Positions 1-63,198 of a stretch of 63,198 bases of DNA are shown here, one piece after another. Made by a program: the position numbers and the translations under genes. The notes under the pieces are model-generated. The model saw nothing but the letters and a program-made list of their open reading frames with translations, made no database searches and had not been told where the DNA came from. The DNA lies in the IMG/VR virus record IMGVR_UViG_3300028146_000011, positions 1 through 63,198 of that record. One strand, written 5' to 3'. Positions within the stretch are counted from its first letter, which is position 1, and the number at the start of each line of letters is the position of its first letter. This DNA is from a virus. Its lineage: Duplodnaviria > Caudoviricetes.

Positions 1-146
1 TGCGCGGTGATGTAGAAGTGTTCATATAGCTACAACTATCTTAAGCTACATGTGCCTATTTGTCAACATGTAATTATTACGTTTTTCGCCTGAGTGCCTT
101 ACGTGCTCTTTCGATCATGGTCTTAGGTGCTGGCCTATGCGCGTCT
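1..146. repeat. Terminal direct repeat / circular overlap, left copy
   Basis: 1..146 is identical to 63052..63198 except for one missing T (gtgttcat vs gtgtttcat). Confidence 0.95.
38..66 (-). promoter_or_regulatory. Sigma70-type promoter TTGACA-17-TAAGAT (duplicate at 63090..63118) for the leftward small-gene block
   Basis: Consensus -35, 17-nt spacer, TAnnnT -10; lies upstream of ORF 62892..63077; palindrome variant adjacent at 69. Confidence 0.75.
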
Positions 147-301
147 ATAAAGGTACACGCTATATTCCACCCGCTGAGCACGGCTGTGTCAAAGTCTGCC
201 ACGATCTTAGATGCGCGTGTACCGTCCGCGTCTATTACCTCCACGTGGTATTTATTGTCGTAGCCGAGAATGATTTGCATAGATTTGATGTGCTGTTTCA
301 T
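77..301 (-). CDS. Hypothetical protein
   Basis: 74-aa ORF with GGAG RBS, last gene of the replication block. Confidence 0.55.
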   Translation of the reverse strand: MKQHIKSMQIILGYDNKYHVEVIDADGTRASKIVADFDTAVLSGWNIACTFIDAHRPAPKTMIERARKALRRKT

Positions 302-317
302 AAAGTCTCCAATTAGG

Positions 318-1805
318 CTACTTTGGCAATAGGCCCCATGAGGTGGCCTTTGCTACACTTGCTTTGATTTCTACCGCGAAGCAGGGGAAGAGTGTTTCAA
401 ACCGATACTTGACCATGCTCCCCAACTCATCGGCCATGTCGTCTCTCACCTCAAATAGTAGCTCATCGTGTACTTGCAGCAGGGGGTGTACCACCTCGTA
501 TATGCTCTCTCCGCAAGCGTCCAGGTCGTCGTCTACTGCTGCCATTGTTATCTTAATGGTGCCCTGTGCTCCACTCTGCATTGGGTGGTTACTGCCTTCA
601 CGCAAGGTATTAGCGACTACCCAATCGTGAACGCTCCTCACTCCCTGTGTGTGCAGGATGCGGCCCCACATATCCACCATGTAGGCATTGCGCCGCATAT
701 AGGCGTGGTCGGCACGCCGCATTGGTATTAGGTAAGAGTACCGTTGGTAGAACTGATTGATTTGATTCTGGCAGGCTGTCTCAATCCAGAGTGGCACAAA
801 CCGATGACATGCTTGTGACTCACCATTTTCTGCGGCCTTAGCTCGGGCCTTCTCTGTGTGTACCTTGCCATCGTGGAAGCAGTTAGCACAGACTACCGGC
901 ATCTGATCCTGTAGTCCCATCGCGGTCACGTCATAGATGCAGGCGAGTACAGAGATTTTAGCCGGTCGCCTGTGCTTCATTTTGTCAACAGTTGGATAGT
1001 GCCAGCCCTCCGCATCCTTATATCTCTGATCTGGCAGCTTGTTGGCGAATGTGGCGAAGTCGCTATAGATGTCCTCTTGATTCTGGTACACACGGATGAG
1101 GTTAGGGTCCTTGCTTCTGTGTGCAGCTATGCGGACTTCGATTTGTGACTCGTCAATGCTGACGATTGACCACCCACTCTTAGTTATGAATCCTTTGCGT
1201 ATCTCTCTGCCTCTGTCTGTGCGAGTGGGCATAGCTAAGAGGTTAGGGTCTTTGCAGGATAGTCTGCCAGAAGTGACGCGGGTGTGATTCAGGTTGGGGA
1301 ACATCCGCCACTCATCATGAGCAACGTGTACAGCAAGTGAGAACATAGGGTCAACGTACGTACCCTTCAGCTTCTCAAACTCTTTGTAGTCCTGTAGATG
1401 GGGTACTACTGGGTGCTCATGCTGTATAGCTGTGAGCACTTCATCAGCCACGCTCTCACGGTCACCGCTGGGAGTCATCTTGCGGCGGGCTTGCTTGAGT
1501 CCCAGCTTCTTAAAGAGAAGGTCTGCTACTTGGTCACCAGATCCAGGGTTGACATAGTAGCCAGTGATAGACCGGATGTCTTCGACGCAGCGCTCCATGT
1601 CGTCAGAGAGCGACTTTTGCATCTTGGCGAAGTGGTCAAGGTCCACTTGCAGCCCAGTGGCCGCCATCCTATTTATCATGGGCAAAGCGCCCATGTCGAT
1701 AAGCTCTACGTTACGTCTGCACGGTCCTAAGCCGTCGATAAGTCTGATGTTGTTGTAGAGCTTCCAGAGGCGTGGATAGACTACTGGCAGGCGAGTCTGG
1801 AGCAT
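318..1805 (-). CDS. polA: DNA polymerase family A, polymerase domain only
   Basis: TSGRLS..PNL, motif A SIDESQIEVR, motif B RRPAKISVLACIYD, NHPMQSGA, motif C LLQVHDELLFE; no N-terminal exonuclease domain. Confidence 0.95.
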   Translation of the reverse strand: MLQTRLPVVYPRLWKLYNNIRLIDGLGPCRRNVELIDMGALPMINRMAATGLQVDLDHFAKMQKSLSDDMERCVEDIRSITGYYVNPGSGDQVADLLFKKLGLKQARRKMTPSGDRESVADEVLTAIQHEHPVVPHLQDYKEFEKLKGTYVDPMFSLAVHVAHDEWRMFPNLNHTRVTSGRLSCKDPNLLAMPTRTDRGREIRKGFITKSGWSIVSIDESQIEVRIAAHRSKDPNLIRVYQNQEDIYSDFATFANKLPDQRYKDAEGWHYPTVDKMKHRRPAKISVLACIYDVTAMGLQDQMPVVCANCFHDGKVHTEKARAKAAENGESQACHRFVPLWIETACQNQINQFYQRYSYLIPMRRADHAYMRRNAYMVDMWGRILHTQGVRSVHDWVVANTLREGSNHPMQSGAQGTIKITMAAVDDDLDACGESIYEVVHPLLQVHDELLFEVRDDMADELGSMVKYRFETLFPCFAVEIKASVAKATSWGLLPK

Positions 1806-1960
1806 GTGTAATGATTACAGTCCTGTGGCCCAGCCCCAGAAGGTTTCCACCACTAGAGTCAGGCCGTAGAGTAAGCAGGCGATACCGAGGACGCAGAGGA
1901 TGCCAACTATCCACACGATAGCTTTGCTGGACCACAGCCAAATGATACGATCAGCCCATT

Positions 1961-2158
1961 TCATGTTTCATACCCGTCCCAAGGTTCCTGCTTGCCGTAA
2001 ATTAGGTTCTCTTGTATGTGCGTCCCACCTGAGAACTCTTCCCTCTCCATCAGTTTTTCAAACAGTGGGTTAGGGCGAACTAGCCACTTGCCAAAGTCTC
2101 TAGCAAATCTTGGTAGTGGTCGCATCTTCTTGCGCTTGTGGTAGAGATTCTTGCGCAT
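1961..2158 (-). CDS. Hypothetical basic protein
   Basis: ORF coupled to the upstream gene by a TAATG overlap. Confidence 0.5.
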   Translation of the reverse strand: MRKNLYHKRKKMRPLPRFARDFGKWLVRPNPLFEKLMEREEFSGGTHIQENLIYGKQEPWDGYET

Positions 2159-2505
2159 TATGGTGTCACCTTGTATGATCCTCTGGTTTGTGCTCTGAAC
2201 CAGTGAGCAAAAGTAGAGCGCTCCTCGTCGGTGAGATCCTTCTGGTTCATGACCATCACGCGGCTGGGTGCCAGTAGTCCACCAAAGTGTAGGATCTCTA
2301 CCAGGACATCGCCGCCCTCTGCTATGATGCGCCGCTGACTCTCCGTCAATTCCAGACGGTAGATTGCGCTTGCTCCATTCTCCCCTGGCAGCGTGCGGAG
2401 TGGATTGTACTTATCCATCTGCTCCAGAGCGTAGATTTTCTCATGATCCTCTAGGCCATCCACAACAGGGCCAATCGAGGGTGATAGATAGTCGAATCGG
2501 CTCAT
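2158..2505 (-). CDS. Hypothetical protein
   Basis: 115-aa ORF with GAGG RBS. Confidence 0.6.
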   Translation of the reverse strand: MSRFDYLSPSIGPVVDGLEDHEKIYALEQMDKYNPLRTLPGENGASAIYRLELTESQRRIIAEGGDVLVEILHFGGLLAPSRVMVMNQKDLTDEERSTFAHWFRAQTRGSYKVTP

Positions 2506-2632: not shown

Positions 2633-3013
2633 TCATCCGAGTAGTGACCTACCCAATCCAGTGCTCTGCTCTCTCTTATGCCAAGCAGCGGCCTCTTTCT
2701 TAGCCTCTGCTATCTGCTCTAGAGTGAGTCTGCGCAACGGTCCTGTTGTCTCTCGTTCTGGAGGCTTACGCATAGCTCGTAGCTGTCTGTTGCGCACCTC
2801 CTGTAGCTTCTTTCGTACTGCTGCCTTCATGCTGGGTACCTCAATTCCTGTTAGTGCTGCTGCCTCACACCACCTTACATAGATGCGGTTGCCATACGGC
2901 GTGTACCTCACACTCAGCCTGTCGTCATCACACCAGATGACGCCGTAAGGCTTCACCTCTAGTATGAGAGCGTCCAGTATTCGCTGCCTATATGGTTCTT
3001 CTGGCACTGTCAT
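2633..3013 (-). CDS. Hypothetical protein
   Basis: 126-aa ORF starting 3 nt after the palindrome at 3017. Confidence 0.55.
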   Translation of the reverse strand: MTVPEEPYRQRILDALILEVKPYGVIWCDDDRLSVRYTPYGNRIYVRWCEAAALTGIEVPSMKAAVRKKLQEVRNRQLRAMRKPPERETTGPLRRLTLEQIAEAKKEAAAWHKREQSTGLGRSLLG

Positions 3014-3030
3014 GACTGTAATGATTACAC

Positions 3031-3219: not shown

Positions 3220-3437
3220 TTCTCTCTCCACTCCTTCATTGCCGTAGCGCAGTCCCAAGCCTCTGACTGCTTGGCGTCACACTTCTCGTCTATCTTTAAG
3301 AAAGTGCGTACCATCATCCAATACCGCACTGTCATTTCAGCCGCTTTATCTCTGGCTAGTAGGACGAATACAGGCTCGTCGTCTTTAGCTTTATTGAGAC
3401 AGCTATTAGGGTCGCGTATTTCGTCTATTTTCTTCAT
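3147..3437 (-). CDS. Phage hypothetical protein (DDEPVFVLLARD motif)
   Basis: Recurrent phage small-protein motif; ATGA coupling to the upstream gene. Confidence 0.6.
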   Translation of the reverse strand: MKKIDEIRDPNSCLNKAKDDEPVFVLLARDKAAEMTVRYWMMVRTFLKIDEKCDAKQSEAWDCATAMKEWREKWLQDTTKQPLEAGSTKSKDTEKI

Positions 3438-4819
3438 GCTGCTACCTCTCTCCAAGTCTCTTGTAGACCTTTCCTGATCCTGCTCTCCATATGCATAAGC
3501 ACGTCACGTAGTCTGCGCAATGCGTCAGCGTCACGACAGGCGTAATGTTTCACCTTCTCCCAGTCGTCCTCTGCTGCGTGCGTGATGCACTTCCCCGGCC
3601 ACTCACCCATTCTCTTCTCAATCATCTGGTGGGAGTCCACCCAGTTCTTAGTCCACTGCTCAAAGATGTTGATAGACGGGTCCTTTTCGTACTTAGTAAA
3701 GAACGTTTTGAGCTTGGTCTTCATGCTGTGTGGCTGCTTGTCCTTCCACGAGCCGTCCTTCTGCCGTTCACGTACTGGCTCTGGCTTAGGCCAGTCCTCT
3801 CTTGCTGCATCCCCATAGTAGGCCAGCACACGACGAGTGCTGTGCGGTGCGACGACATCATCAAAGTCCATCATCTCCATGCCTAACTCGCGGAAGGCTA
3901 ACGCTTTAAGGCCCTGTGGTATATTGCCCAAGTTGAAGGCCCTCACCATTGTGTCGATGATCTTATGCTTGGGGAATCGTAGGCCCATCTGCTTGGTGAT
4001 CGGGTAGTCTGCCATCCAGTTGTGCCATAGGATGTCGCCCTCCCATATGTCTAAGTGCTCTTGAAACGCGGCTAGAGCTAACTTGTTCTCTGCTCTGATG
4101 AGCCGTCCACGTCCAGCCCTTGTTGTGTAACTGAGACAGAATGCGAGTCTTTTGCGTGTGAACTCTGTATCACAGGCAAGCGGTTGGTCAGCCTCTCCGT
4201 CGAGATCACGGTGTACGTCTGATGAGGTAATAGACTCTGCGTAGTCTTCCAGACCGGCGTACTCATCAAACCCAAGCTGAAGCCGCCCGTTGATGTACTG
4301 TCGCAGTCGATACCAGTCTGTCCTGATCTGGAGCATCTTCTTCGGCTCATGAATCCCTCCTGCTGGGTGGTACATCGGGAATGTCCAGCCCCATTTAGTC
4401 TGTAGTGGCATCCCGTGGTGTAGTTCAAGGTTGATGTCTGGGTCAATCGCATGGCAGGCGAAGGCTCCCATTGGGATGATTAGAGATGCCGGGTATTGTT
4501 GAAGCTCTGGGTACAGCCGGTGACCGGCACACGTGTACAGCAACTCGCGGTGCGCTGGTTTCTTAAGGTCCAGCTTGTGCTCCGACGTGTCCGGTAGACA
4601 GCCAATAGCATTACCGATTCTAATGTTTCCTCTACGTAGTCCAGCCAAAGGCAGGTATCCATTGTCCACTTCCTTTCCTGTCTTGCCTACGAAACACTCA
4701 CCCTTGCGCTCCTCTTCCCAGCCGGGTGCCTCACCTATGAACTTGTAGGAGCTAGTGCAAGGCCCCATGAATGGGACACATTTATACTTGCCTGGGCAGG
4801 CTGGGCAGCGGTCGCTCAT
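3434..4819 (-). CDS. Uracil-DNA glycosylase family 4-like domain fused to a DnaQ-like 3'-5' exonuclease (N-terminal half of an SPO1-type PolA)
   Basis: FIGEAPG..E...G..FVGKTG and YHPA UDG motifs with N-terminal Cys; ExoI ACDTE, ExoII HNWMAD, ExoIII YACRD. Confidence 0.85.
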   Translation of the reverse strand: MSDRCPACPGKYKCVPFMGPCTSSYKFIGEAPGWEEERKGECFVGKTGKEVDNGYLPLAGLRRGNIRIGNAIGCLPDTSEHKLDLKKPAHRELLYTCAGHRLYPELQQYPASLIIPMGAFACHAIDPDINLELHHGMPLQTKWGWTFPMYHPAGGIHEPKKMLQIRTDWYRLRQYINGRLQLGFDEYAGLEDYAESITSSDVHRDLDGEADQPLACDTEFTRKRLAFCLSYTTRAGRGRLIRAENKLALAAFQEHLDIWEGDILWHNWMADYPITKQMGLRFPKHKIIDTMVRAFNLGNIPQGLKALAFRELGMEMMDFDDVVAPHSTRRVLAYYGDAAREDWPKPEPVRERQKDGSWKDKQPHSMKTKLKTFFTKYEKDPSINIFEQWTKNWVDSHQMIEKRMGEWPGKCITHAAEDDWEKVKHYACRDADALRRLRDVLMHMESRIRKGLQETWREVAA

Positions 4820-4998
4820 AATCTCTTAAGTATCTCGTTTGCAAGAGACTTAGCCTGTTCTACAGTCAGACCAATAGTTCTCTCCCCCTTCCATATGTGA
4901 ACCATTTGGATTTCACCGTTAGGGGCTAAGTCAGTTTTGAATACTACTGTTATTGGACTCTGCTCTGTGTCCTTATTATTGGTTACTTCCCTGTCCAT
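4816..4998 (-). CDS. Hypothetical protein
   Basis: 60-aa ORF overlapping both neighbours. Confidence 0.45.
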   Translation of the reverse strand: MDREVTNNKDTEQSPITVVFKTDLAPNGEIQMVHIWKGERTIGLTVEQAKSLANEILKRL

Positions 4999-5714
4999 AT
5001 CTCCCTCGCAATTCTCTTAGCCGTACGTGGGCTGATCCCGTGTATCTTCACCCAATCAGTCTCATCTGAGTTGCCCATCTCATGCAGACTGCTGAATATG
5101 TCATCCGCTCTACTACTGAGCTTCACACCTAGCCCGTCAATCTGCGCCGCACATCGTCTCACAAGTGTCGGCCTGCCGCCTATCTCAGCAAGTGGGAGTA
5201 GCTGTATCTCAAGCAGGCTCGTGTGGTCATCCCATGCCTTACGGAAGTATTCGTACAACATGCAGACGTTGTAGGCTGTGCCGTACTGATCTCTGCTGGG
5301 TGTAATGATTACACCTGAGAGTGCAACTGAGACTAAATAGTTGAATAGTTTAGAGTAGAGTGGCGGCCTTTGCCTGTAGCGGCACACTCCCCATGATGCT
5401 CCACCCTTGAAGCCCTCCATCAGCGTGCCCTCGTTATCGTGTGGCTTGTACAGCCCTTCGATTGCGAGGAAGCTCAACTGATAGAGGGTACGCATTCCAC
5501 CCCTCTGCACACCGGCATACCGCGCGTCATCTATACAGTGGAGCATGTCATGCAGTGACTTGCGCTCTACACCTATATTGATGACACCCTCTGGACCATT
5601 GCCCTCAAAGGCAAAGTCAGCGTACTTGAGGTTAGCTAACACAGCTTGGTAGCCTATGCGTTGTATGGTGGGCAGCAGTTCCCTACTGCCTGTTTCGTGG
5701 GCGACTAGGATCAT
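4983..5714 (-). CDS. ERCC4/XPF-family structure-specific nuclease with C-terminal HhH-like region
   Basis: L..ADF and GVERKS..D catalytic motifs; IDGLGVK and IHGISPRTA HhH-like segments. Confidence 0.85.
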   Translation of the reverse strand: MILVAHETGSRELLPTIQRIGYQAVLANLKYADFAFEGNGPEGVINIGVERKSLHDMLHCIDDARYAGVQRGGMRTLYQLSFLAIEGLYKPHDNEGTLMEGFKGGASWGVCRYRQRPPLYSKLFNYLVSVALSGVIITPSRDQYGTAYNVCMLYEYFRKAWDDHTSLLEIQLLPLAEIGGRPTLVRRCAAQIDGLGVKLSSRADDIFSSLHEMGNSDETDWVKIHGISPRTAKRIAREIWTGK

Positions 5715-8005: not shown

Positions 8006-8006
8006 T

Positions 8007-8702
8007 TCACTCTCCTATCGCGTAGATTCCGTCGTTGTCTTGTGATGCAAGCCAGTGATCCCTATAGTCGCGTAGAGTTGCCCAGTTGTTCTCAAGCTCA
8101 ATGTCCTCAAACTCTAGCTGCCACGCCATGTTTTTGGGCCTGATTGGATACGTGTAGTCTCCGCACACAAACAGCACGTGCAGCACAGCGAACCGTGTCT
8201 TACGCGCCAGACAGTATCCCTTGATCTGAGCCATCCACATCCACTGGCGTTGAATAGCTTGGGCTAACTCCTCCGCTGTGGCGATTACGTAGTCTCTGCC
8301 TGCCACAGTGCGGACACTCTTATATGTGCATTTGACTTCGTGGACTACACACGCCATCCGTGGGCCGGTAGATGTAATGATTACACTCACCGACTCACCA
8401 TCACGGCTCATGTAGACGCCTTCGTGACATATCTCTGGTGGGTGGTCCAGTACGTTGTGGTGACGTGTGAGCACTTCTGGGATATAGTAGCGCTCCCACC
8501 CGATGCCTAAGCCTATGCGGCCTAGAGCTACTGGGTCTGTGATATCCCGTGAGTCAACTAGTGACAACTCCTCCACGGCATCAGGCGTCAGTATGCCGTG
8601 CTCAATAGCTATGTTGCGTATGATGGAGGACTGATGAATACCGGGTGACCGCCCATCAGGTGGTGGGAGTTGCAGGTCAAAAGTAACGGGCGTAACGATC
8701 AC
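8007..8702 (-). CDS. PD-(D/E)XK exonuclease (Cas4/AddB-like)
   Basis: GIHQS, G..WE, SRDG, HEVKCT and Q..GY motifs. Confidence 0.75.
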   Translation of the reverse strand: MIVTPVTFDLQLPPPDGRSPGIHQSSIIRNIAIEHGILTPDAVEELSLVDSRDITDPVALGRIGLGIGWERYYIPEVLTRHHNVLDHPPEICHEGVYMSRDGESVSVIITSTGPRMACVVHEVKCTYKSVRTVAGRDYVIATAEELAQAIQRQWMWMAQIKGYCLARKTRFAVLHVLFVCGDYTYPIRPKNMAWQLEFEDIELENNWATLRDYRDHWLASQDNDGIYAIGE

Positions 8703-9172
8703 ACTGCAAGCTCCACACCGGACAGCGAATCTAGCCACCGAGAGCACTTCTTACGCCACTCTCGTACGAGCTTGGCTGATTCCTTTGTCTCAAACATAGC
8801 AACGGCTGCCGAATCATCTGCGCCTAACATGATGCGGCGCACCGATAAAGCCTCTTTAACCGGATCGCTGCCCAGGCACGCTTGTAGAGCAATACGGGTT
8901 AGTGGCAGTAGAGGCATGTCTACACACACATAAACATGGTAGTTGTTGCCGCCACTCTTACTAGGTACAGTTAGTATTTCCTCAAAATGTCGTAAAGAGT
9001 TGGTAGACAAGACGTTGAGTACGGGGTTGCTTAGATGCTTTGCCACCTGTATTTCATACTCTTCATCGTAGTCCAGTACAAGCTCGTTGGGCAGGGGGAA
9101 GAAACACTCAAGACCAAGGTCAATGGCAGTTAGTTCTGCGTCAGACTGCGTACGTTGGATAACTTCACTCAT
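8699..9172 (-). CDS. Small protein with AEP/prim-pol-like motifs
   Basis: LVLDYD (hhhDhD), SKSGG..HVY and LGSD in the expected order. Confidence 0.4.
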   Translation of the reverse strand: MSEVIQRTQSDAELTAIDLGLECFFPLPNELVLDYDEEYEIQVAKHLSNPVLNVLSTNSLRHFEEILTVPSKSGGNNYHVYVCVDMPLLPLTRIALQACLGSDPVKEALSVRRIMLGADDSAAVAMFETKESAKLVREWRKKCSRWLDSLSGVELAV

Positions 9173-10262: not shown

Positions 10263-10289
10263 CTTGTGTCTTTCTCCAAAGTGTAATGA

Positions 10290-10562
10290 TTACATTTCCT
10301 GTTTTGTCCTAGCGACACTCGCTAGTCCGTTTCGTATCCAAGCTCTCGCGGCTTGGGTCGCTTCAAATCCTGTATCCTCCTCTCCACCATTGCCAAGCGC
10401 CCACCAGTAATAGACATCACGTCGAGTCTCACCTCTGCCTACTGACCCCTTCCACATATAATACTCACCCTTCTTACCGTTGTCTGCTGTGTATGCTACA
10501 CAGACTGCTTCAATTGGCACTCCCTGTGGTCTGGGCTTGTGTGGGATTTCATCCTGGCTCAT
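10290..10562 (-). CDS. Hypothetical protein
   Basis: ATGA overlap with the helicase; stop codon supplied by the palindrome at 10282. Confidence 0.55.
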   Translation of the reverse strand: MSQDEIPHKPRPQGVPIEAVCVAYTADNGKKGEYYMWKGSVGRGETRRDVYYWWALGNGGEEDTGFEATQAARAWIRNGLASVARTKQEM

Positions 10563-12136: not shown

Positions 12137-12150
12137 GTAGTTGAATACAC

Positions 12151-12179
12151 ATGGTATTACCACTATGCCTATTTGTCAA
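12151..12179 (-). promoter_or_regulatory. Sigma70-type promoter TTGACA-17-TACCAT for the replication operon
   Basis: Consensus spacing, upstream of the helicase ATG. Confidence 0.75.
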
Positions 12180-12205: not shown

Positions 12206-12235
12206 TGTGGAAAACTAGTTGCAGACTGTGGAAAA
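12206..12235 (-). promoter_or_regulatory. Two DnaA-box-like 9-mers (TTTTCCACA) 21 bp apart
   Basis: tgtggaaaa at 12206 and 12227 match TTWTNCACA; non-coding context. Confidence 0.5.
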
Positions 12236-54345: not shown

Positions 54346-54471
54346 GGCAGCCGGTGTGCTGCCTGAACTGCACTTGCTCTGCTACTGCCAGAGGGTGAAC
54401 TGGTACAGGCGGATGTTAGTGCAGTTCAGCCAGCATACCTGTAATGATTACACATGCTGAAGAGGAGTAAA

Positions 54472-54582
54472 ATGACTGCTTATGCTGCTGCTGATGCTGC
54501 TTATGCTGATGCTGCACGCGACAAAGCTCAATCTCAGATGTGCGATATTATTCGCAGTCTGATTCAGTTTCCCGGTATTTAG
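54472..54582 (+). pseudogene. 36-aa remnant of an AAYAAADAA-repeat protein
   Basis: MTAYAAADAAYADAARDKAQSQMCDIIRSLI; GAGGAG RBS. Confidence 0.35.
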
Positions 54583-54674
54583 GGTGCTCTAACGGTCCTC
54601 TGCCTACACGGTGGAGCGCCGCCAGTGCATCAAGTGTAGTCATTACAGATGTTGCATTGGAGAATCGAGCAACT

Positions 54675-55835
54675 ATGAGAAGTAAAACGAACCTGATGGC
54701 GGCGTCCCGGCAGTGGGCCGAACGTCCGGCAGATCAACGGTTTTGGACCCTGCAAGACTTGCTTGACAGGACAAAGCTGTATGCAGAGCAATGCGTTATT
54801 AAACCCGTCGCACTTGGCGAGTGCAGCGTCATCCCAAATGGCGATGACTTGCGGCTTGTTGGGCCGGAGGGTCATAGCGCAGAGTTCATGCACTACAGTT
54901 TTGGTCAGGTCGCAGGTCTGGCGCAGGCCCCAGCGTCCTACCTTCGTGCGCTCCCCGCGCCTCTGGCATCCCAATGCCTGAATCACGGGCTGGCTCATGT
55001 TGGCGGCGAACAATCGTTGATGTTCCACAAGAATGGAGGGTTACACCTCCGCTGTGTCACGAGTGACAAGTACGCACGCATCTGGAACTGGGAGGTAGCC
55101 GAACTTGCGCTAGCTCTCCAGGAACAAGAAGGCTGGCGTACACCTCCTGCACGTCCTTGTGGACTGCCCAACATCGAAGTCCGTACGGCGACTAAAGAGG
55201 ATGTACTGCGCAATTCGGCGCACCCTAGCATGGGGATCAAGGTGGGTGACTCCATCTCCCCTGCCGGGCTGTATGCGTCGGATCACGACTTGTTCATCTT
55301 CCAGGTCAATGAGGACTATCCGGTTGAAGCTGGGGACGGCGAGACATTGTACCGTGGCGTATTCTGGCGCAACTCAGAAGTGGGTGAGTGCAAATGGCGC
55401 GGTACCTTCTTCCTCTATGACTCGGTGTGCGGAAATCACATCGTCTGGGGGGCGAAGGTGCTGGCTGAGATTGCTATCACTCACACGGGTAGCGCACGGG
55501 AGCGCTTTGCGGAAGCAATGGCAAGCTGTCATGCCTACATCAGCCACGCGGCCAGCGATGACGAGAAGCGTATCGAAGTCGCTAAGGGGACCATACTGGG
55601 CAGCACCCAGGTTGAAGTCGTTGAAACGGTGTTCAAGAAGCAGTTTGGCTTGAGCAAACGTGAATGCGAGGACAGCTATGTGCTGGCAGTGCGGCACGCT
55701 GACGACCACGGTAACAATCCTCATTCAGCATGGGGATACGCGGCGGGTGTCACTCGGCTCTCACAAGGCCGATACACTGACGAGCGTGACCGGATGGACC
55801 GAGCAGCGGGCAAGATACTCAGCTTGGCCCTGTAA
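54675..55835 (+). CDS. DUF932-like plasmid/phage protein
   Basis: SRQWAERPADQRF, LYASD.D.F.F, RG.F..NSEVG, VC.NH.VWG. Confidence 0.7.
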   Translation: MRSKTNLMAASRQWAERPADQRFWTLQDLLDRTKLYAEQCVIKPVALGECSVIPNGDDLRLVGPEGHSAEFMHYSFGQVAGLAQAPASYLRALPAPLASQCLNHGLAHVGGEQSLMFHKNGGLHLRCVTSDKYARIWNWEVAELALALQEQEGWRTPPARPCGLPNIEVRTATKEDVLRNSAHPSMGIKVGDSISPAGLYASDHDLFIFQVNEDYPVEAGDGETLYRGVFWRNSEVGECKWRGTFFLYDSVCGNHIVWGAKVLAEIAITHTGSARERFAEAMASCHAYISHAASDDEKRIEVAKGTILGSTQVEVVETVFKKQFGLSKRECEDSYVLAVRHADDHGNNPHSAWGYAAGVTRLSQGRYTDERDRMDRAAGKILSLAL

Positions 55836-55957
55836 GCGAGCGTAGCGAAGCGGATACGAGACATACAGCGCGAAGCGCTGGATGTTGAGTATACGCGAGC
55901 GTCTACCGCTTCCACATAGGAGCCGTGGTCAATACGCGGCTCCGAATGGAGGTGCCC

Positions 55958-56221
55958 ATGAGTGTAATCATTACAGTGGACCGGGATGGTAACCCAGTCA
56001 GCCGTGAGGACACCATACGAATGATGGAGGAAGCAGAGCATCATGCAGATGAGCGCTGCCCGTCCTGTCATCACTTATGGGAAGATCACGTAGAGGATAC
56101 AGACGACGGCGAGAGCTACTGTGTCGGTAACCTACGTGAGAACTCAACCCAGTTACCAACAATCGGATATGCACCGCTGTGTGTTTGTAGGCAGCGCTAT
56201 AGTGTCACAGATCAAATGTGA
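55958..56221 (+). CDS. Small Cys/His protein
   Basis: CPSCHH...H...C...C.C; GGAGGT RBS. Confidence 0.55.
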   Translation: MSVIITVDRDGNPVSREDTIRMMEEAEHHADERCPSCHHLWEDHVEDTDDGESYCVGNLRENSTQLPTIGYAPLCVCRQRYSVTDQM

Positions 56222-56497
56222 ATACACTACGCTGTCGAAGCAGGTGGGCTGGATTCAGGATGCTGTAAGCATCCTTCCAGACCATTATACACATTTAAGT
56301 CAAGTGAAATCAACGACTTAGATGGGTTCTTTACAATTCTTTACAATCTGGGGTGGTCCTAGACGTTGGTAGGGGTGTCCGATCGCGGTGTAATGACCCC
56401 GTAATAGGCCAAAAAAACACCCATTTCTGACCCATTTCGGCCCGATGTAATCATTACAGTCGGTCCAAACATTAAGGCTTTGTTAATCCGATTTCCC

Positions 56498-56581: not shown

Positions 56582-57904
56582 ATGGCAAAGAAACAGACAG
56601 CAGAAGCGGTGAGTCCCGACGTGATTCAGCGCGTACCCCCGTCAGTGCTGATCGGTGACGAAAACAGCCGATTTGGACTGAAGGCCAACCGCATTGAGAC
56701 GATGAAGCAGGCGATTCTGGCGCAGGGTGGCATCTTAGTGCCGCTCGAAGTCGTTGCCCTGGCGAGTGCCGTCAATGGTGCAAAGTACCGCATCGAGGAC
56801 GGCCACTACCGGCACGCGGCTGCGTTGGAGTTGTCCAAAGAGTTTGACGGTATTGACTGTCCGGTTATCGTTCGGACACCTCAAGCCGATGAGACTCCGC
56901 TGAAACGGCTCATGCGGCAGACGGCCATCAACATGGAACGTGAAGCGCTCTCCCCGATGGATATCGCAGTCGCCATCAAACAGATGTACGACGGCGGCAT
57001 CCCCCGGCAGGAGATCCGCAACTTGTTCCAGCGTCCTGGTGGTCGCAAGGGCAATAAGGTCCAGCAACTCAGCAACTCGATGATGAACATCTACATGTCT
57101 TTCCTGGACTTCCCCAAGGACATCCAGGCGAAGATTCACGATGGCATCATCGGCGTTGCGGCGGCGTACAAGCTGTCAACAAAGCCTGCTGAGAAGTGGG
57201 CTGAGATCGTGGCCGAATGTGAGGCAGAGCGTGAAGAGGAACTGAAGGCAGACGAGCAGCGTGAAGAACGCTATCTGTCTGAAGTCAAGAAGGGCGAGGA
57301 GCGCGAAGCCAAGCAGAAGGAGTTGGAGCTTGCCGCCGTCGCTGCGCAAACCGCTGTGGACGAGAAGGCTAAGCTGGCCGACGAGAAGATCAAGGCTGAG
57401 GCTGATGCGTTGGCCGCTCTCCGCAAGGGCGCTGCTGACAATGAGGCCAAGAAGAAGCTGGAGGAACACTCGGCGGCAGCTAAGGCTGATTCGGTCGCGG
57501 CGGTGAAGGCGCTCGAAGACGCCAAGAAGGAAGCGGAGAAGGCTGCTAAGAAGCTGGAGACTGTCCGCGAGGAAGCCGCGAAGCGTGCGGCTAAGCTGGC
57601 GGAAGCTCGTGCGGCGGCGGCCAACAAGAAGGCTCCGGCTCCTGACAAGGCTCCGGCTCCCATCGGTGCTGGGCAAGTGGACCGTGCGGCTAACAAGCTG
57701 GGCGGCTCTACTCTGGTGAAGCTCACTGCTCAGCAGATGCGGCAAGCGGTACACGACTGGACGCTGCCCGGCTCCTTCCCCAAGGTGCAGGCACTCGCCC
57801 AGGTCATTATGAAGTGCTTCGACTCCGAGTTGACCCCGGCTCAGGCGTACACTGAGTTGGGCAAGCTCACGGGCGAAGCGAAACCCACAACCAAAAAGAA
57901 GTAG
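56582..57904 (+). CDS. ParB/Srx-domain protein with HTH-like region and long Ala/Lys/Glu coiled coil
   Basis: N.RF, AI..QGGILVPL.V, YRIEDGHYRHAA (GxxR motif), N..RE.LSPMD.A; monocistronic. Confidence 0.85.
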   Translation: MAKKQTAEAVSPDVIQRVPPSVLIGDENSRFGLKANRIETMKQAILAQGGILVPLEVVALASAVNGAKYRIEDGHYRHAAALELSKEFDGIDCPVIVRTPQADETPLKRLMRQTAINMEREALSPMDIAVAIKQMYDGGIPRQEIRNLFQRPGGRKGNKVQQLSNSMMNIYMSFLDFPKDIQAKIHDGIIGVAAAYKLSTKPAEKWAEIVAECEAEREEELKADEQREERYLSEVKKGEEREAKQKELELAAVAAQTAVDEKAKLADEKIKAEADALAALRKGAADNEAKKKLEEHSAAAKADSVAAVKALEDAKKEAEKAAKKLETVREEAAKRAAKLAEARAAAANKKAPAPDKAPAPIGAGQVDRAANKLGGSTLVKLTAQQMRQAVHDWTLPGSFPKVQALAQVIMKCFDSELTPAQAYTELGKLTGEAKPTTKKK

Positions 57905-57920: not shown

Positions 57921-57951
57921 AGGGGCGGCTCAGAGATGGGCCGCCCTTTTT
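57921..57951 (+). terminator. Rho-independent terminator after the ParB-like gene
   Basis: GGGCGGCTC...GGGCCGCCC followed by TTTTT. Confidence 0.85.
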
Positions 57952-58026
57952 GTTTCCTAATGCGGCCACTGTAATGATTACGGTGAGTGTTCCTAAGCCA
58001 CTAACGCAGAAGGGGAAAGAGGTGTT

Positions 58027-58302
58027 ATGTATTTGACATCAGGTCAAGTCTTACTGTTCTGTGCGCTCCTCTGGGCCGTGTTGCTCCTGTGGCCTAAGAT
58101 GGGTGCTGCATTTGGGTCGCTGCTAACACGCCACTCGTGGGCCTTGCAGCGGCTCTACGCTCATCTGGGGCGTGGTCTGGCCGCGTACAGTGAGCGTATC
58201 CAGCGGAGGATCAACTATCCCGAGGTGTCATTTGAGTATGACCTGGAGGGTGAGAACCGTGTGGATGCAGCACTTAAGGAGGTGACCAGACGGGGACTGT
58301 AA
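58027..58302 (+). CDS. Small membrane-anchored protein
   Basis: GAGGT RBS; N-terminal hydrophobic helix. Confidence 0.55.
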   Translation: MYLTSGQVLLFCALLWAVLLLWPKMGAAFGSLLTRHSWALQRLYAHLGRGLAAYSERIQRRINYPEVSFEYDLEGENRVDAALKEVTRRGL

Positions 58303-58305
58303 TGA

Positions 58306-58671
58306 TTACACGCCGTCAGGTGGGGGGCTAAACAGCTTGCGGTCTGCAATCTGCTTGTTTAGCTCCTCGCGTGTCTTAGTGGTCGTTAGTCTGTTGCGCT
58401 CTCCCACGATGTTTCGTAGAGCACAGAACAGTAGATCCCATAGACCGCGAGTGGTTCTGTTGAACCCCTGCACGTTCCCAGTGCGCCACGTATTACCTTT
58501 TGGCCAGTAGTGACCGCCGTACACTCCACCCCACAGTCTTACCTCATAGTCACCGAGATCCCCGCTACTCTGCACAGTAGTTCGCACGGTGTTGTTGATC
58601 TCTGCTCGTGCAAACTCTTGTGCTCGTGACTCATCCCCACCCGGCCACATCTCCACTTTAATAACGATCAT
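58306..58671 (-). CDS. Phage hypothetical protein (MIVIKVEMWP.G type)
   Basis: Recurrent phage motif. Confidence 0.6.
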   Translation of the reverse strand: MIVIKVEMWPGGDESRAQEFARAEINNTVRTTVQSSGDLGDYEVRLWGGVYGGHYWPKGNTWRTGNVQGFNRTTRGLWDLLFCALRNIVGERNRLTTTKTREELNKQIADRKLFSPPPDGV

Positions 58672-58981
58672 GGTCGTCTCTTCTCTGTGCGTGCCTACCT
58701 TTGCCGTCCCCGCTCTTTCTCTCTCCTCTCGGCTTGTCCACAGCGATTCTCGCCGCAATGGGCCGCCCCATAAACTCCATACCGTTGATCCTGTCAATGC
58801 ACTCGTCCCTACCCTCATCGGACGAGAACTCCACGAATCCAAAGCCCTTAGACCGTCCATTATCCTTGTCAGTCACGATGCTAACCTTGGTGGGCCGTGC
58901 TGTCACGTTCCGCATAACAAGGTCTGTGATGTCGTCTGCCGTCGCTCTGTACGACAGGTTTGCGATAAACACTTGGCTCAT
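58658..58981 (-). CDS. RRM (RNP-1) RNA-binding protein
   Basis: RNP2 VFIANL, RNP1 KGFGFVEF, ING.EFMGR.I. Confidence 0.92.
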   Translation of the reverse strand: MSQVFIANLSYRATADDITDLVMRNVTARPTKVSIVTDKDNGRSKGFGFVEFSSDEGRDECIDRINGMEFMGRPIAARIAVDKPRGERKSGDGKGRHAQRRDDHDRY

Positions 58982-59163
58982 TGTTGTCTCTCCGGTTGTC
59001 TAACTACACTTATCTCAATTGTCCCGTGAACTGATACCGCCCGTATTGAGTGCTGTTCGCATTGGTCACATGTGAACCCAAATCTCTGATACATGTTGGA
59101 CCAAATCACGTACACCTTGTGACCTAGTGGGCATGTGATGTACTCCGCTTTCTCATTCGGCAT
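58978..59163 (-). CDS. Small Zn-ribbon-like protein
   Basis: CPLGH...CDQC. Confidence 0.5.
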   Translation of the reverse strand: MPNEKAEYITCPLGHKVYVIWSNMYQRFGFTCDQCEQHSIRAVSVHGTIEISVVRQPERQQ

Positions 59164-59408
59164 AGTGTCACCTGTAATCATTACACTTTGGCAAGTTCCC
59201 ACGGCTATGTGCTGTGGAGGTTGTGAAGACGCCCCCAGCGGCCCCGAGGCCAGCGTGCAATCTTGCCCTCATTTATAAGTGCAACCGGCCTCATGATTTA
59301 CCCAATCACGTTATTTGTAAGTGGCCGGTTGGTACGCAGACAGTGCTCTGTAGTCCTCGGTGGCACGCCGTTACCGTTGCTTCCCGCCGTTAGACGCCCA
59401 CCTCATAG

Positions 59409-61082: not shown

Positions 61083-61268
61083 TTACAGGTCGCCTAACTC
61101 AACGGTGAGCTTAGATGTGCCCACATTATTAAAGGTGTACTCCCAGCACTTCATGCCATCAGGAGGAAAGGGGCCAAAAAGCACTTCCTCTTTCTTCTCT
61201 CCTAGCTCATCTTCTCGCTCCACCCATAAGTAGATCTTATTGGGTGGTGTAAACTCAGTATTCGCCAT
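61083..61268 (-). CDS. Hypothetical protein
   Basis: Overlaps the upstream gene. Confidence 0.5.
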   Translation of the reverse strand: MANTEFTPPNKIYLWVEREDELGEKKEEVLFGPFPPDGMKCWEYTFNNVGTSKLTVELGDL

Positions 61269-61788
61269 TCTCGTCCTCTTCCTTCTCGTCGGGCTTCTGA
61301 ATGCGCAGTGTATAGCTGGGCTTGCCGTACTTCACACAGGCGCTCTTAATGCTGTGGATCTGCTCATCCTTCAGCCCTGCCGCAAGTAGAGCGTTAACTA
61401 GGTCAATCTCTTTGATGGTGACGCGGCCATCTGTGGCATAGTAGTTGATCGTCCAGCCTTCCCACAGTGCTCTGCTCACCTTGTTCTTACCAAGTATGTC
61501 CTTGATTCTCCGCGTGAGGGGCTTGCGCTCTCGTTTTGCTACTATCTCGGCTTCGGCCAGTTCACGCTCCTTAGTCAAATAGCGCACTAGCTCAAGCTGA
61601 GTCTTGCGGTCAGTGATGATAGCCGTAAGCTCCGGTACCGTCTCCTCTTCCTTAGAGGGTGGCGGCGTAATGGGTGGCTCTGGTGGCTTGACTCTCTTCA
61701 CTGACGCTTTGAGCCGGTCCTCAATGCTCATCTCATGGGGCACAGGAGGAGGTGTAGGTGGTTCGGGAATAGTCTTGCGCGTAATCAT
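61255..61788 (-). CDS. Hypothetical protein with Pro-rich N-terminus
   Basis: Start ATG supplied by the palindrome variant at 61780. Confidence 0.6.
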   Translation of the reverse strand: MITRKTIPEPPTPPPVPHEMSIEDRLKASVKRVKPPEPPITPPPSKEEETVPELTAIITDRKTQLELVRYLTKERELAEAEIVAKRERKPLTRRIKDILGKNKVSRALWEGWTINYYATDGRVTIKEIDLVNALLAAGLKDEQIHSIKSACVKYGKPSYTLRIQKPDEKEEDENGEY

Positions 61789-62216
61789 TACACTTCTCCT
61801 TGTGGTAACGCAGCAGGCTCCTGCACGATTGGGGTAAATGTGGGCAGCCGTTTGACAACTGCCGCCATTACTTCCTCGATATCAAGGCCATCCCCTCGGT
61901 TGTCAATTGCGTGGTTGAGTGCTGCGATGCTCCCCAGCCCCAGTTGTACCCACCTCAAGCAGGCGAGAGCCACGTCAGCCCTTCTGTTGCACACGTCTGA
62001 AAATAGCATCCAGATGCGTGGACCATAGATAGCGTGGGTATCAAGTGACAATAGAGGTGCTACGGCCCCCAGCATAGACTGCGGGTCAACGGTAGGGTTT
62101 GCCATTGCCATCTCCATGCAGGCACTCACCGCTCCTGGGTTGCCTTCAGATATCTTCTCGATTGCAGAAATAGGCGTGTCGCTCAATTCGATTCGTTCAT
62201 GGTGTCTCACGTTCAC
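61788..62216 (-). CDS. Phage hypothetical protein (SEGNPGA...IYG..IW.L..DVC type)
   Basis: Recurrent phage motif; AAGGAG RBS. Confidence 0.65.
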   Translation of the reverse strand: MNVRHHERIELSDTPISAIEKISEGNPGAVSACMEMAMANPTVDPQSMLGAVAPLLSLDTHAIYGPRIWMLFSDVCNRRADVALACLRWVQLGLGSIAALNHAIDNRGDGLDIEEVMAAVVKRLPTFTPIVQEPAALPQGEV

Positions 62217-62222
62217 TCTCCT

Positions 62223-62741
62223 TTATGCTTTTTCTTTCGATAGTTGAGACTTGAGAGCGTGGTCGTGCATAAGCTCATCAAGAGCCTCTGAGTAGTTGGC
62301 TAGTTCAAGTCGGCCAAAGCCTTTAGTGCTCAGCTTTAGTTCCTCTAGCTGTTTGGTTGCCTTCTCCATCTGCTTCCTAGCTGCAATGAACGCCTCCAGC
62401 ACAGCACGGCATCCAGGAGTGTCAGGTACGACGTGCCTTAGAATTTTATCTTTGGGTATTCCAGTCAGTAGGAAGTCTTTGCTTGTACGGTTGATGCCGG
62501 TGAGGACGGCTTTATGCACTGTATTACCGTCCTCGTCACTACTAAAGTATGATTGCTTGGTCATGAGTCCAAGCACAGGGAGTGACAGCTTGCGCTTAGC
62601 TTCTGGAGTGAGAGCCTTGTCGATGAGGAGCTTCACAGCATCCAGACTGTCAGCAGATACAGTAGCCTCTTCGAGTACGCCAACAAACTTACCGCTGCTC
62701 TCTACCTGGATCTCGATGCCTTTATGTGTGAACAGTGCCAT
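62223..62741 (-). CDS. Hypothetical protein
   Basis: AAGGA RBS. Confidence 0.6.
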   Translation of the reverse strand: MALFTHKGIEIQVESSGKFVGVLEEATVSADSLDAVKLLIDKALTPEAKRKLSLPVLGLMTKQSYFSSDEDGNTVHKAVLTGINRTSKDFLLTGIPKDKILRHVVPDTPGCRAVLEAFIAARKQMEKATKQLEELKLSTKGFGRLELANYSEALDELMHDHALKSQLSKEKA

Positions 62742-62895
62742 TACTTTCTTCCTTATTTAATGTCAACTTCCCAGGCTCCTCAACTGTAATGATTACACGG
62801 TCGCCTTCCTTCAGACCTGATGCAGCTAACACCTGTGCTGTCAGCGTAACCACTACGCTGCATGAGGAGCGGCGAACTTTGACGATTGCTCTCAC
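62722..62895 (-). CDS. AbrB/MazE/SpoVT-like swapped-hairpin DNA-binding protein
   Basis: VKVRRSSCSVVVTLTAQVLAASGLKEGDRVIITVEEPGKLTL. Confidence 0.7.
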   Translation of the reverse strand: MRAIVKVRRSSCSVVVTLTAQVLAASGLKEGDRVIITVEEPGKLTLNKEESNGTVHT

Positions 62896-63077
62896 CGCTG
62901 TCCTGGTGCCTCCACAACGCCCTCGATAGATGCCGCAAGCCATCCAGGACGTCTCAGTCGGAGATTGTTGAAGTAGTTAAGAGCATTGTCCCGTGACGTG
63001 GCGTATACGTCTTCCGTGTGCCATCCAGTCACGGAGTAGGCTTGACTGCACTGCGCGGTGATGTAGAAGTGTTTCAT
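62892..63077 (-). CDS. Hypothetical protein, first gene after the 63090..63118 promoter
   Basis: GTGA overlap with the AbrB-like gene. Confidence 0.5.
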   Translation of the reverse strand: MKHFYITAQCSQAYSVTGWHTEDVYATSRDNALNYFNNLRLRRPGWLAASIEGVVEAPGQR

Positions 63078-63198
63078 ATAGCTACAACTATCTTAAGCTA
63101 CATGTGCCTATTTGTCAACATGTAATTATTACGTTTTTCGCCTGAGTGCCTTACGTGCTCTTTCGATCATGGTCTTAGGTGCTGGCCTATGCGCGTCT
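63052..63198. repeat. Terminal direct repeat / circular overlap, right copy
   Basis: Matches 1..146; this copy keeps ORF 62892..63077 in frame. Confidence 0.95.

Follow-up and report, generated by a model that had tools for sequence, protein, structure and literature searches.

Evenly Dispersed 13-bp Palindromes in an Uncultured Soil Phage Are Candidate Binding Sites of Its Own ParB/KorB-like Protein

The KorB operator OB is a 13-bp palindrome of 6-1-6 format, TTTAGC-G-GCTAAA (TTTAGCGGCTAAA core; PMC11790492), and plasmid RK2 carries twelve OB sites on approximately 60 kb, at positions ranging from promoter-adjacent to more than 1 kb away (PMC13768133). Among phages, the Cluster O mycobacteriophages (Corndog and its relatives) possess more than 30 copies of a 17-bp palindrome, TGTTCGG-N3-CCGAACA, whose role is unexplained and which the authors predicted to be bound by a dimeric protein; 14 of 34 repeats are intergenic, 10 lie near gene 5' ends and 10 fall inside genes (PMC4351075). 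In the parts of that description used here, these phages lack an integrase and parAB but possess glycosyltransferases and a protein with a ParB-like domain, to which the repeats are not linked (PMC4351075). The stoperators of Cluster A phages, in turn, are bound by a phage repressor for genome-wide silencing (PMC4351075). Here, we describe an analysis of IMG/VR virus record IMGVR_UViG_3300028146_000011 (Duplodnaviria; Caudoviricetes), the whole 63,198-nucleotide stretch of which is called the window, across which the 13-bp palindrome TGTAAT-N-ATTACA (TGTAATNATTACA) is dispersed and which encodes a ParB/KorB-like protein.

ParB-fold proteins are common orphans in phages, where the sections of the literature consulted describe their roles as obscure (PMC12704722). 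Searches with the literal motif returned incidental primer matches only, and those for dispersed sites of a phage ParB yielded general ParB surveys besides the Cluster O paper. No publication that connects genome-wide palindromes with a ParB-fold protein of a phage was found in main texts, although supplementary tables might differ; the marking or controlling of a whole viral genome through its own ParB-fold protein has hardly been studied. From sequence comparisons, we lean, if only slightly, toward regarding the palindromes of the window as candidate binding or loading sites of the phage's own ParB/KorB-like protein (56582-57904). The proposal draws on the motif statistics, the restriction of the palindrome to one clade, the fold of the protein and the co-variation of protein and site, and from these we infer binding, clamp behavior and outcome.

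Exact motif search identified 40 perfect copies of the palindrome across the window, the number given in a preliminary description of this DNA that had been made from the letters alone. Dinucleotide shuffles (n=100) yielded a mean of 0.01 and a maximum of 1 perfect copy, and codon-preserving shuffles, in which protein sequences and codon usage were held fixed (n=200), yielded a mean of 0.125 and a maximum of 2, so that chance and codon effects are ruled out as the origin of the palindrome. Allowing up to two mismatches gives 49 matches: the 40 perfect copies, eight with one mismatch (starting at 69, 19552, 43933, 49131, 54635, 57970, 61780 and 63121) and one with two (43888). The ends of the window duplicate each other, positions 21-146 being identical to 63073-63198 and bases 2-20 matching as well except for a one-T indel. 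The record therefore represents a genome of about 63,052 bp that is either closed into a circle or terminally redundant. Site 69 is identical with site 63121, leaving 47 unique palindromes; the preliminary description had counted six copies with one mismatch. The previously noted extension of the palindrome by G or C is borne out, since 46 of the 80 half-sites have G at -1, 25 have C, 9 have A and none has T (G/C in 71/80), and the base at -2 is A in 45/80. The central base is G or C in 36 of the 40 perfect window sites and in 153/157 sites over six genomes. All 16 occurrences of the peptides VIIT, VMIT and CNNY in the called proteins are encoded by the palindrome, and the positions of orthologous sites are conserved although their flanks diverge. 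The palindrome is a real feature under selection.

Beside this extreme enrichment of one 13-bp palindrome there is strong avoidance of restriction sites: 14 of the 64 palindromic hexamers, including GGATCC, CTGCAG, CTCGAG, GTCGAC, TTCGAA and TGATCA, are wholly absent from the window, with 14-21 copies of each expected. In two related records, the motif forms the core of a longer palindrome within a non-coding control region, at 17744-17774 of G001, where the palindrome is perfect over 31 bp (GTGACACAC-TGTAATGATTACA-GTGTGTCAC), and near 43881 of G007.

The sites are also spaced more evenly than expected. Gaps between window sites average 1342 bp and reach at most 3271 bp, in agreement with the earlier estimates of about 1.4 and 3.3 kb, and their coefficient of variation (CV) is 0.61, as compared to approximately 0.97 for random placement (P=0.0002); the regular intervals proposed from inspection thus hold up against a random model. 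The gap CV lies between 0.60 and 0.68 in all six genomes analyzed. A junction-aware null, in which extragenic sites are placed at random gene starts and the remainder inside genes, still averages 0.96 in CV (window, P=0.0002; five of the six genomes, P<0.03) and rules out even spacing as a by-product of gene lengths. The even coverage of the genome by palindromes is a real property. A dense cluster between 48.4 and 51.8 kb (9 sites in 3.5 kb), considered as a nucleation region, was not significant (P=0.068) and has no counterpart in G001, G002 or G007.

An exact scan of IMG/VR with a 15-mer returned at least 116 stretches, and among the matches listed nine records carry between 7 and 33 copies of the 13-mer each, at one per 1.5-2.2 kb (G001, 33 copies in 49.5 kb; G002, 25 in 55 kb; G003, 19; G004, 18; G005, 14; G006, 15; G007, 25; G008, 7; G009, 10). 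Whole-record comparison of the window with G001, G002, G003, G006 and G007 revealed a common replication module, comprising a split family-A polymerase, four further open reading frames (ORFs) and a helicase, as well as a weak XRE homologue; four of these five records also share the ParB-like gene. The structural genes of these relatives are unrelated to those of the window. The structural module is instead shared with another record, G010 (52% complete; capsid 89% and portal 72% identical), which contains no copy of the palindrome and no other enriched palindrome. At eight comparable orthologous junctions, the window reads stop-palindrome-Shine-Dalgarno (SD)-start where G010 reads stop-SD-start, indicating that the sites are an add-on dispensable to the structural operon. 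The palindromes follow the replication/ParB backbone and not the structural genes.

A search with the helicase profile extended this clade to 21 loci, all of which carry some variant of the palindrome; the 13 newly examined among them each possess a related enriched palindrome, at 45-63% GC. These variants include TGTAAC-N-GTTACA, (C)GTAGT-N-ACTAC(G) and TGTAAT-NN-ATTACA, and a TGTATA half-site also occurs; G015 carries 19 and G014 carries 21 copies of its own variant. Megablast of 25 kb of the window against GenBank phages gave no match. The capsid protein matched phages of Tunturiibacter alone, and weakly (24.8% identity over 54% of the query), so that the host is hinted at only faintly, if at all. 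No enriched palindrome occurs in the initial 50 kb of Tunturi_1, which served as a negative control.

The window derives from an uncultured soil phage: the sequencing runs that contain it are all labeled soil metagenome, with no RNA run among those listed. A 17-mer scan of 185,579 bacterial and archaeal species genomes found 43 stretches (about 70 expected, by a rough estimate), all of them single-copy except for two on one 45-kb phage-like contig of a metagenome-assembled genome (MAG). This contig (45.3 kb; G011 contig C89; L147, L179, L189-L191) holds all 20 of the 13-mers in its 1.4-Mb MAG and encodes a ParB-like homologue, and thus represents a phage of this clade. The MAG is labeled Patescibacteria, and the rest of it is without a copy, so that C89 is probably mis-binned; in that remainder, as in two further genomes of 7.3 and 8.4 Mb, the 13-mer is present at most once. 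A host-wide repeat of the HIP1 or uptake-sequence type is rejected, since the 17-mer never exceeds one copy per bacterial genome scanned, outside the phage-like contig. Motif-bearing contigs are binned in MAGs with unrelated labels and give no consistent host signal.

The proposed reader of the palindromes is a 440-aa protein encoded on the plus strand at 56582-57904 and followed by a terminator-like hairpin (57921-57948, +); its homologues in the clade are ParB/Noc/KorB-fold proteins of 420-450 aa. Its predicted architecture consists of ParB N-terminal and helix-turn-helix (HTH) domains (residues ~15-200), followed by a long hairpin of two helices (203-347) and a small helical domain at the C terminus. 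When compared with the PDB, the family profile matched Spo0J (8.4e-9), ParB and Noc (~1e-8) and KorB (E 0.0017). The AlphaFold2 model (mean predicted local distance difference test, pLDDT, 83.9) retrieved Noc as the top Foldseek match (E 3.5e-8), with Noc, ParB and KorB chains at 1e-8 to 1e-5 and KorB chain 8qa9_B at a TM score of 0.53 over 196 columns; these alignments span about 200 residues and cover the N-terminal and HTH domains. HMMER aligned profile positions 9-233 to Myxococcus xanthus ParB, including the HTH and the GHAR helix. PF02195 is annotated in 10 of the 31 family members, which are all that occur among 5.8 billion proteins, and neighboring clusters in the ESM Atlas, mostly viral, are of ParB_N, HTH_ParB and KorB type; tblastn against 50,697 GenBank phage records gave no match. 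Box III of the nucleotide pocket is retained, with ENMERE aligned to ENLQRA (ParB box III, ENLQR). By its profile and structural matches, the protein is a true member of the ParB/Noc/KorB fold. Pfam and PHROGs scans of 56 of the 93 ORFs of the window revealed two DNA-binding candidates alone, this protein and a 78-aa XRE-type protein; the AbrB-like, RHH-like and TerS candidates named in the preliminary description did not appear among the ORFs scanned. A DUF932-family gene (54540-55835, +) lies just upstream of the ParB-like gene, and DUF932 and ParB-like genes also adjoin in some integrative and conjugative elements.

The protein and the palindrome occur together. The motif or a variant is present on all eight viral loci and on 19 of the 21 metagenome loci that encode the ParB-like family, the two exceptions being 2-kb contigs, and both are found in the MAG contig, G014 and G015. 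In all seven genomes examined, the ParB-like gene has a site no more than 250 nt upstream, but this carries little weight, since sites tend to fall in intergenic DNA and several of the genomes are related. More telling is the segment GVAAAY, which HMMER aligns to SMGHAR of ParB. In Caulobacter ParB, as far as the source consulted describes it, this stretch contains G201 and the DNA contact R204. Four residues, position 201 among them, switch the specificity from parS to the Noc-binding site (NBS) or back, and position 201 reads the outer base of the half-site (PMC7383237). The equivalent residue is Ala in 12/12 aligned rows with at least three canonical sites, a set that includes near-duplicates as well as the divergent G000, G002 and C89, and it is K, H, Q, G, S, S, L, T and T in the nine variant-motif lineages. 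In G014, which retains the half-site and has a 2-nt spacer, the residue is Ala and the preceding loop carries a two-residue insertion. Among ParB-like homologues, Ala is found wherever the TGTAAT half-site sits on both arms with a G/C center. On the protein tree, the ParB-like protein of the window groups with variant lineages yet keeps the canonical motif and Ala, and the motif label requires at least four changes. This sequence co-variation is the most telling link between the ParB-like protein and the palindrome: the test suggested earlier, whether relatives carry their own palindromes co-varying with one reader, points to the ParB-like protein and not to the XRE protein.

The strict dyad symmetry, even dispersal and orthologous conservation of the sites fit a dimeric DNA-binding protein acting genome-wide. 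To this extent the earlier suggestion of a dimeric protein is sustained, while the roles attached to it (coating, silencing, segregation, packaging) stay suggested readings only. In the mechanism that we propose, the HTH domain and the helix after it would allow a dimer to recognize both TGTAAT half-sites. By analogy with ParB, Noc and KorB and in keeping with the modeled fold, the dimer may then close as a nucleotide-dependent clamp and slide. With a site every ~1.3 kb and no gap above 3.3 kb, the protein could reach the whole 63-kb genome, and the regular spacing is compatible with clamp sliding. The likely outcome would be genome-wide control or organization, such as a KorB-like damping or timing at a few sigma70-type promoters. 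A more far-reaching version, in which phages of this clade coat or patrol their chromosome with a self-encoded nucleotide-switch clamp of ParB/KorB type loaded at 20-47 even palindromes, site and protein co-evolving at the specificity position that distinguishes ParB from Noc, is possible but in our estimation somewhat doubtful; if true, it would amount to a self-marking chromatin that might protect or silence the genome or time its transcription globally.

Several observations weigh against the proposal that the ParB-like protein reads the palindromes and acts as a clamp. The co-variation is based on few independent lineages and is not free of exceptions: in L192 the half-site is retained alongside Leu and a central A/T, in L208 a single canonical site is paired with the segment SVDGAY, and in L209 Ser goes with one canonical and one CGTAAT site. 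Presence and absence fail to separate the ParB-like gene from the rest of the replication module, and no ParB-like match was found in G005, G006, G008, G009, G016, G017 and G018, all of which are 26-59% complete. Box II reads G-(F/H)-Y-R in place of GERR (GERRxRA), retaining the last Arg alone, and this degeneracy makes clamp behavior uncertain. A ParA partner, which would mark a ParABS system, was found in none of the 56 ORFs scanned, the remaining 37 being mostly small. In addition, the gene calls on which the placement of sites depends come from a simple in-house ORF caller.

With respect to these gene calls, 16 of the 47 sites are at most 30 nt upstream of a called start (random 5.7%) and 12 in other intergenic DNA (random 8%), such that 28/47 fall outside called genes (random 14%) and 19 inside them (random 86%), five of the latter in the first 10% of the ORF. 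The same preference for gene junctions is seen in five relatives. The statement in the preliminary description that many sites are deep inside genes was thus too strong, as only about 9-12 window sites are truly internal. Over six genomes, 55 of 68 intragenic sites read V-(I/M)-I-T and 13 read C-N-x-Y; 20 of the 68 are so near the 5' end of the ORF (first tenth) that translation may in truth begin downstream of the site. The palindrome contains TAA on both strands and, with a G center, generates a TAATG overlap, and several genes start or end within it. The sites in the ERCC4-like gene and in ORF 8007-8747 are informative because they recur at the same relative position in G001, G002, G003 and G007. 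Orthologous intragenic sites are kept though the proteins are 38-48% identical (about 44-48% for these two). A polarity of the central base with transcription was considered and rejected, the sense strand carrying C in some genomes and G in others; sense-strand C as avoidance of a spurious ATG likewise fails in G001, G003 and G007, in which the sense-G form often supplies the TAATG stop/start overlap.

Transcription in the phage relies on promoters of sigma70 type and on intrinsic terminators. Only five strong sigma70-like matches are found between genes of the window, and three of the 47 sites lie within ~100 nt of these promoters. The site at 69-81, which equals 63121-63133 and carries one mismatch (TGTAATTATTACG), is 2 nt upstream of a minus-strand TTGACA -35 box and centered at -44 of the promoter TTGACA-17-TAAGAT. 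The site at 12655-12667 occupies a divergent control region and is centered at -47 of the promoter of the 78-aa XRE-type HTH gene (12378-12614, -), a potential rival reader or possible partner. This promoter, TTGACA-16-TACAAT (12621-12648, -), has a -10 box that ends 6 nt before the ATG, predicting a leaderless transcript. The third site, 50307-50319 (center T), lies in a second divergent control region, is centered at -100 of the leftward promoter and overlaps the spacer and -10 box of a rightward sigma70-like match. Contrary to the earlier view that the sites are not ordinary promoter operators, two of the five strong promoters have a site at -44 or -47, and the palindrome could, by analogy with OB of KorB, act as an operator at some promoters. 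In G001, G003 and G007 the ParB-like gene has a separate TTGACA-17-(T/A)AnAAT promoter 18-42 nt past the site, indicating that the palindrome is not itself the promoter. The divergent control region contains a second inverted repeat, AGTTGTAATT-N6-AATTACAACT (12676-12701), in which TGTAAT/ATTACA half-sites are 8 nt apart. A 14-mer, TGCCTATTTGTCAA (reverse complement TTGACAAATAGGCA), occurs at 53-66, 12166-12179, 12361-12374 and 63105-63118 and marks three leftward sigma70-like promoters, and ORF 12215-12337 starts 2 nt after a predicted transcription start. Searches for RNA families and tRNAs in the window found none.

These features bear on the alternative readers. The palindromes could be stoperator-like operators through which the XRE protein, or another phage repressor, silences the genome at about 47 sites. 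The XRE gene lies in a divergent control region, its promoter has a site centered at -47, weak homologues adjoin the helicase gene in G001, G002, G003 and G007, and most sites fall in short intergenic gaps, as do stoperators (PMC4351075). Under an identical motif, however, the XRE recognition helix varies (DNTY, DQSW, STSH, SKSY, SISH) and homologues from motif-sharing genomes are only 27-31% identical; the sites are symmetric, and their central base shows no polarity that holds from genome to genome; one of them (58298) lies between convergent genes; and no integrase or other lysogeny gene was detected among the 56 ORFs scanned, so that we judge a repressor of this kind unlikely. The sites might instead serve the replication and recombination module, for instance as targets every 1-3 kb of a nuclease, nickase, or priming or initiation factor. 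The motif family does track this module in every helicase-bearing locus (21/21), its spacing is regular on a kilobase scale, and the module encodes an ERCC4/XPF-like nuclease and several uncharacterized proteins, with no primase recognized. ERCC4-type nucleases are structure-specific rather than sequence-specific, however, and cutting the palindrome on both strands would break the genome; among proteins of the module, a sequence-reading domain was identified in the ParB-like and XRE proteins alone, and the co-variation lies in the ParB-like protein. This replication role appears to us quite improbable.

Still further from expectation, though suggested by the 16/47 sites that lie within 30 nt of a start, is that the palindrome serves as a symmetric extended -10-like promoter (TGT-AATNAT on both strands), possibly a late one used with a phage factor and giving leaderless or short-leader transcripts. 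Starts do occur 1-3 nt past the sites at 1807, 3017, 35862, 40829, 48406 and 51443, with no SD, and only about five strong sigma70-like promoters are available for a 63-kb genome. The palindromes nevertheless do not behave as sigma70 extended -10 elements: the same structural operon runs without them in G010, and in the window they form an extra insert between the stop and an intact SD; sites are conserved inside genes, and one lies between convergent genes; each site would have an A, which is not the consensus base, at -12; the ParB-like gene has its separate TTGACA promoter at a variable distance downstream of the site; and the regular spacing is left unexplained. Finally, a host protein, such as a Fur-family regulator or a nucleoid protein, might read the sites, or the motif might mimic a host-genome repeat. 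The flanks extend the motif to a 7-1-7 form, which resembles the sites of Fur-family regulators, and the stretch occurs in soil-metagenome runs only. Against this, the 17-mer is never present more than once per bacterial genome scanned, bar the one phage-like contig, and the variants differ among related phages of 44-63% GC while co-varying with a phage protein; we regard a host reader as highly improbable.

The individual sites are given here in order along the window (strand signs are those of the named ORF, and sites are perfect unless stated otherwise). In the replication region, 1807-1819 lies 1 nt upstream of the ATG of the C-terminal part of the DNA polymerase (318-1805, -), with no SD between, and 3017-3029 precedes ORF 2633-3013 (-) by 3 nt. 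The site at 5301-5313 is inside the ERCC4/XPF-like nuclease gene (4983-5714, -), where it encodes VIIT, and 8373-8385 is in the middle of ORF 8007-8747 (-). Site 10282-10294 precedes ORF 9222-10262 (-) by 19 nt, with the SD between site and start. Site 12023-12035 falls in the first 8% of the helicase ORF (10559-12163, -), and in four relatives the internal ATG of the palindrome could be the helicase start. Beyond the divergent control region, 13840-13852 lies inside a glycosyltransferase gene (13589-14758, +), 15449-15461 at the 3' end of ORF 14725-15453 (+), and 17950-17962 at the junction of the end of ORF 17232-17954 and the ATG at 17971 (+), with an SD between.

In the leftward genes that follow, 19552-19564 (one mismatch) is near the 3' end of ORF 19417-21297 (-) and 21313-21325 is 15 nt upstream of the same ORF, at a junction whose G010 orthologue has no site. 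Four further sites precede ORFs and are absent in G010: 22444-22456 (center A), 21 nt upstream of ORF 21937-22422 (-); 28111-28123, 13 nt upstream of ORF 27909-28097 (-); 33024-33036, 16 nt upstream of ORF 32219-33007 (-); and 38655-38667, 10 nt upstream of ORF 38162-38644 (-). Two occupy the interval between an upstream stop and the SD, 30980-30992 before ORF 30388-30969 (-), where G010 has the same junction without the palindrome, and 32205-32217 before the major capsid gene (30995-32194, -), which is absent in G010. The portal gene (33913-35859, -) is bracketed by 33900-33912, directly 3' of its stop codon, and 35862-35874, 2 nt upstream of its ATG with no SD and absent in G010. Sites 24866-24878 (in the middle of the 1142-aa ORF 23030-26458, -), 26841-26853 (ORF 26451-27908, -), 30241-30253 (small ORF 30127-30378, -), 42943-42955 (ORF 42589-43278, -) and 47204-47216 (the 1323-aa ORF 43952-47923, -) lie inside genes. 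The site at 38118-38130 falls in the first 4% of ORF 37200-38165 (-) and reads VMIT, and its ATG may be the true start. Site 40829-40841 contains the stop of ORF 40837-42093 and is 3 nt upstream of ORF 39908-40825 (-), and 43933-43945 (one mismatch) lies between ORFs 43952-47923 and 43539-43874 (-).

Toward the right end, 48406-48418 (center T) is 2 nt upstream of an in-frame ATG of ORF 47987-48445 (-), 48553-48565 is intergenic, just past the end of ORF 48576-49097 (-), 49131-49143 (one mismatch) is near the 3' end of ORF 49101-49406 (-), and 49936-49948 is 17 nt upstream of ORF 49403-49918 (-). On the other side of the second divergent control region, the internal TAATG of 50686-50698 provides the ATG of ORF 50690-50896 (+), and 51443-51455 (center A) is 2 nt upstream of the ATG at 51458 (+); 51013-51025, 51804-51816 and 54440-54452 are intergenic, the last of these upstream of the DUF932 gene, and 54635-54647 (one mismatch) is in the first 7% of that gene. 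Site 55963-55975 lies just past the start of ORF 55925-56221 (+). The ParB-like gene has 56446-56458 at 123 nt upstream and 57970-57982 (one mismatch) 66 nt past its stop, just after the terminator-like hairpin. Site 58298-58310 lies between the convergent ORFs 58027-58302 (+) and 58306-58860 (-), with both stops within the site and no start nearby. The remaining sites are 59173-59185, near the start of small ORF 58978-59202 (-), 61780-61792 (one mismatch), at the junction of ORFs 61788-62216 and 61255-61788 (-), and 62785-62797, inside weakly supported small ORFs.

Other genes of the window were annotated in passing. The family-A DNA polymerase is split into 318-1805 and 3434-4819 (-), which match successive parts of one PHROG profile and are separated by ~1.6 kb of small ORFs, and the same split is found in relatives. 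The product of 4983-5714 (-) is an ERCC4/XPF/Hef-like nuclease with a C-terminal helix-hairpin-helix (Hef nuclease domain match, 3e-4) and is conserved in all replication-module relatives. The helicase (10559-12163, -) has invariant cysteines C111, C119, C127 and C135, a pattern that resembles that of XPD/DinG-type iron-sulfur helicases; no primase was recognized in the module. Rightward genes at 13589-14758, 14725-15453, 16083-16757 (PLOD glycosyltransferase domain) and 17232-17954 form a glycosyltransferase-like cluster, and glycosyltransferases are also present in Cluster O phages. ORF 37200-38165 (-) contains collagen-like Gly-X-Y repeats of 9-bp periodicity at 37658-37783 and is a probable tail fiber gene. 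The 1323-aa ORF 43952-47923 (-) has three divergent internal repeats about 400 bp apart (44592-45759; D10, D11) and matches no Pfam family. The predicted structure of ORF 9222-10262 (pLDDT 47) was unusable, and single-sequence PDB searches with three window proteins, as well as a PDB search with the profile of A1, gave nothing useful.

The clade pairs one protein family with its sites in natural variants (TGTAAT, TGTAAC, TGTATA and CGTAGT half-sites, with 1- or 2-nt spacers), and one candidate specificity residue is directly testable. If the ParB-like protein does read the palindromes, the multi-site sliding-clamp principle of KorB and Noc would extend to whole viral genomes, the site density of the window would, to our knowledge, be the highest for such clamp systems, and orthogonal ParB/site pairs could be used as DNA-labeling tools.

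Among described systems, Noc/NBS and ParB/parS resemble that of the window in their fold and in the reading of palindromes by the HTH and helix alpha6. Their specificity is determined in part by position 201 (PMC7383237), the position that co-varies in the window family. They differ in being chromosomal, with 16-bp sites at far lower density, and neither membrane tethering nor ParA-dependent segregation is indicated in the window. The Cluster A stoperators, read by L5 gp71, are similar in number and length, with dozens of 13-bp sites mostly in short intergenic gaps (PMC4351075, in the sections drawn on here), but they are asymmetric, oriented with transcription and bound by the immunity repressor of a temperate phage, whereas the window sites are symmetric and show no such orientation.

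The nearest mechanistic analogue, by comparison of protein and site, is KorB, a clamp that acts over distances of up to kilobases. Both systems combine a ParB-family protein, with KorB chains among the Foldseek matches, and a 13-bp 6-1-6 operator with a G/C center that is dispersed over a replicon of about 60 kb, as far as the KorB sources consulted describe it. RK2 differs in being a plasmid, not a phage, and in having 12 sites as compared to 47. KorB also has a ParA partner, IncC, and the clamp-locking proteins KorA and TrbA, in contrast to the absence of ParA among the 56 window ORFs scanned. The window protein is distinguished by its degenerate box II, its weak sequence similarity to KorB (E 0.0017) and its long helical hairpin, a feature that we do not know from KorB. 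The closest phage precedent, judged from the portion of the published description used here, is the Cluster O palindromes. There, as in the window, tens of dyad-symmetric copies are distributed genome-wide and partly inside genes in phages that encode a ParB-like protein, and the 47 window sites, 28 outside and 19 inside genes and mostly away from promoters, conform to this arrangement as a likeness of kind only, given that sequence and format are different and that hosts and phages are unrelated. If the ParB-like protein of the window proves to act through its palindromes, the same principle may explain those of the Cluster O mycobacteriophages.

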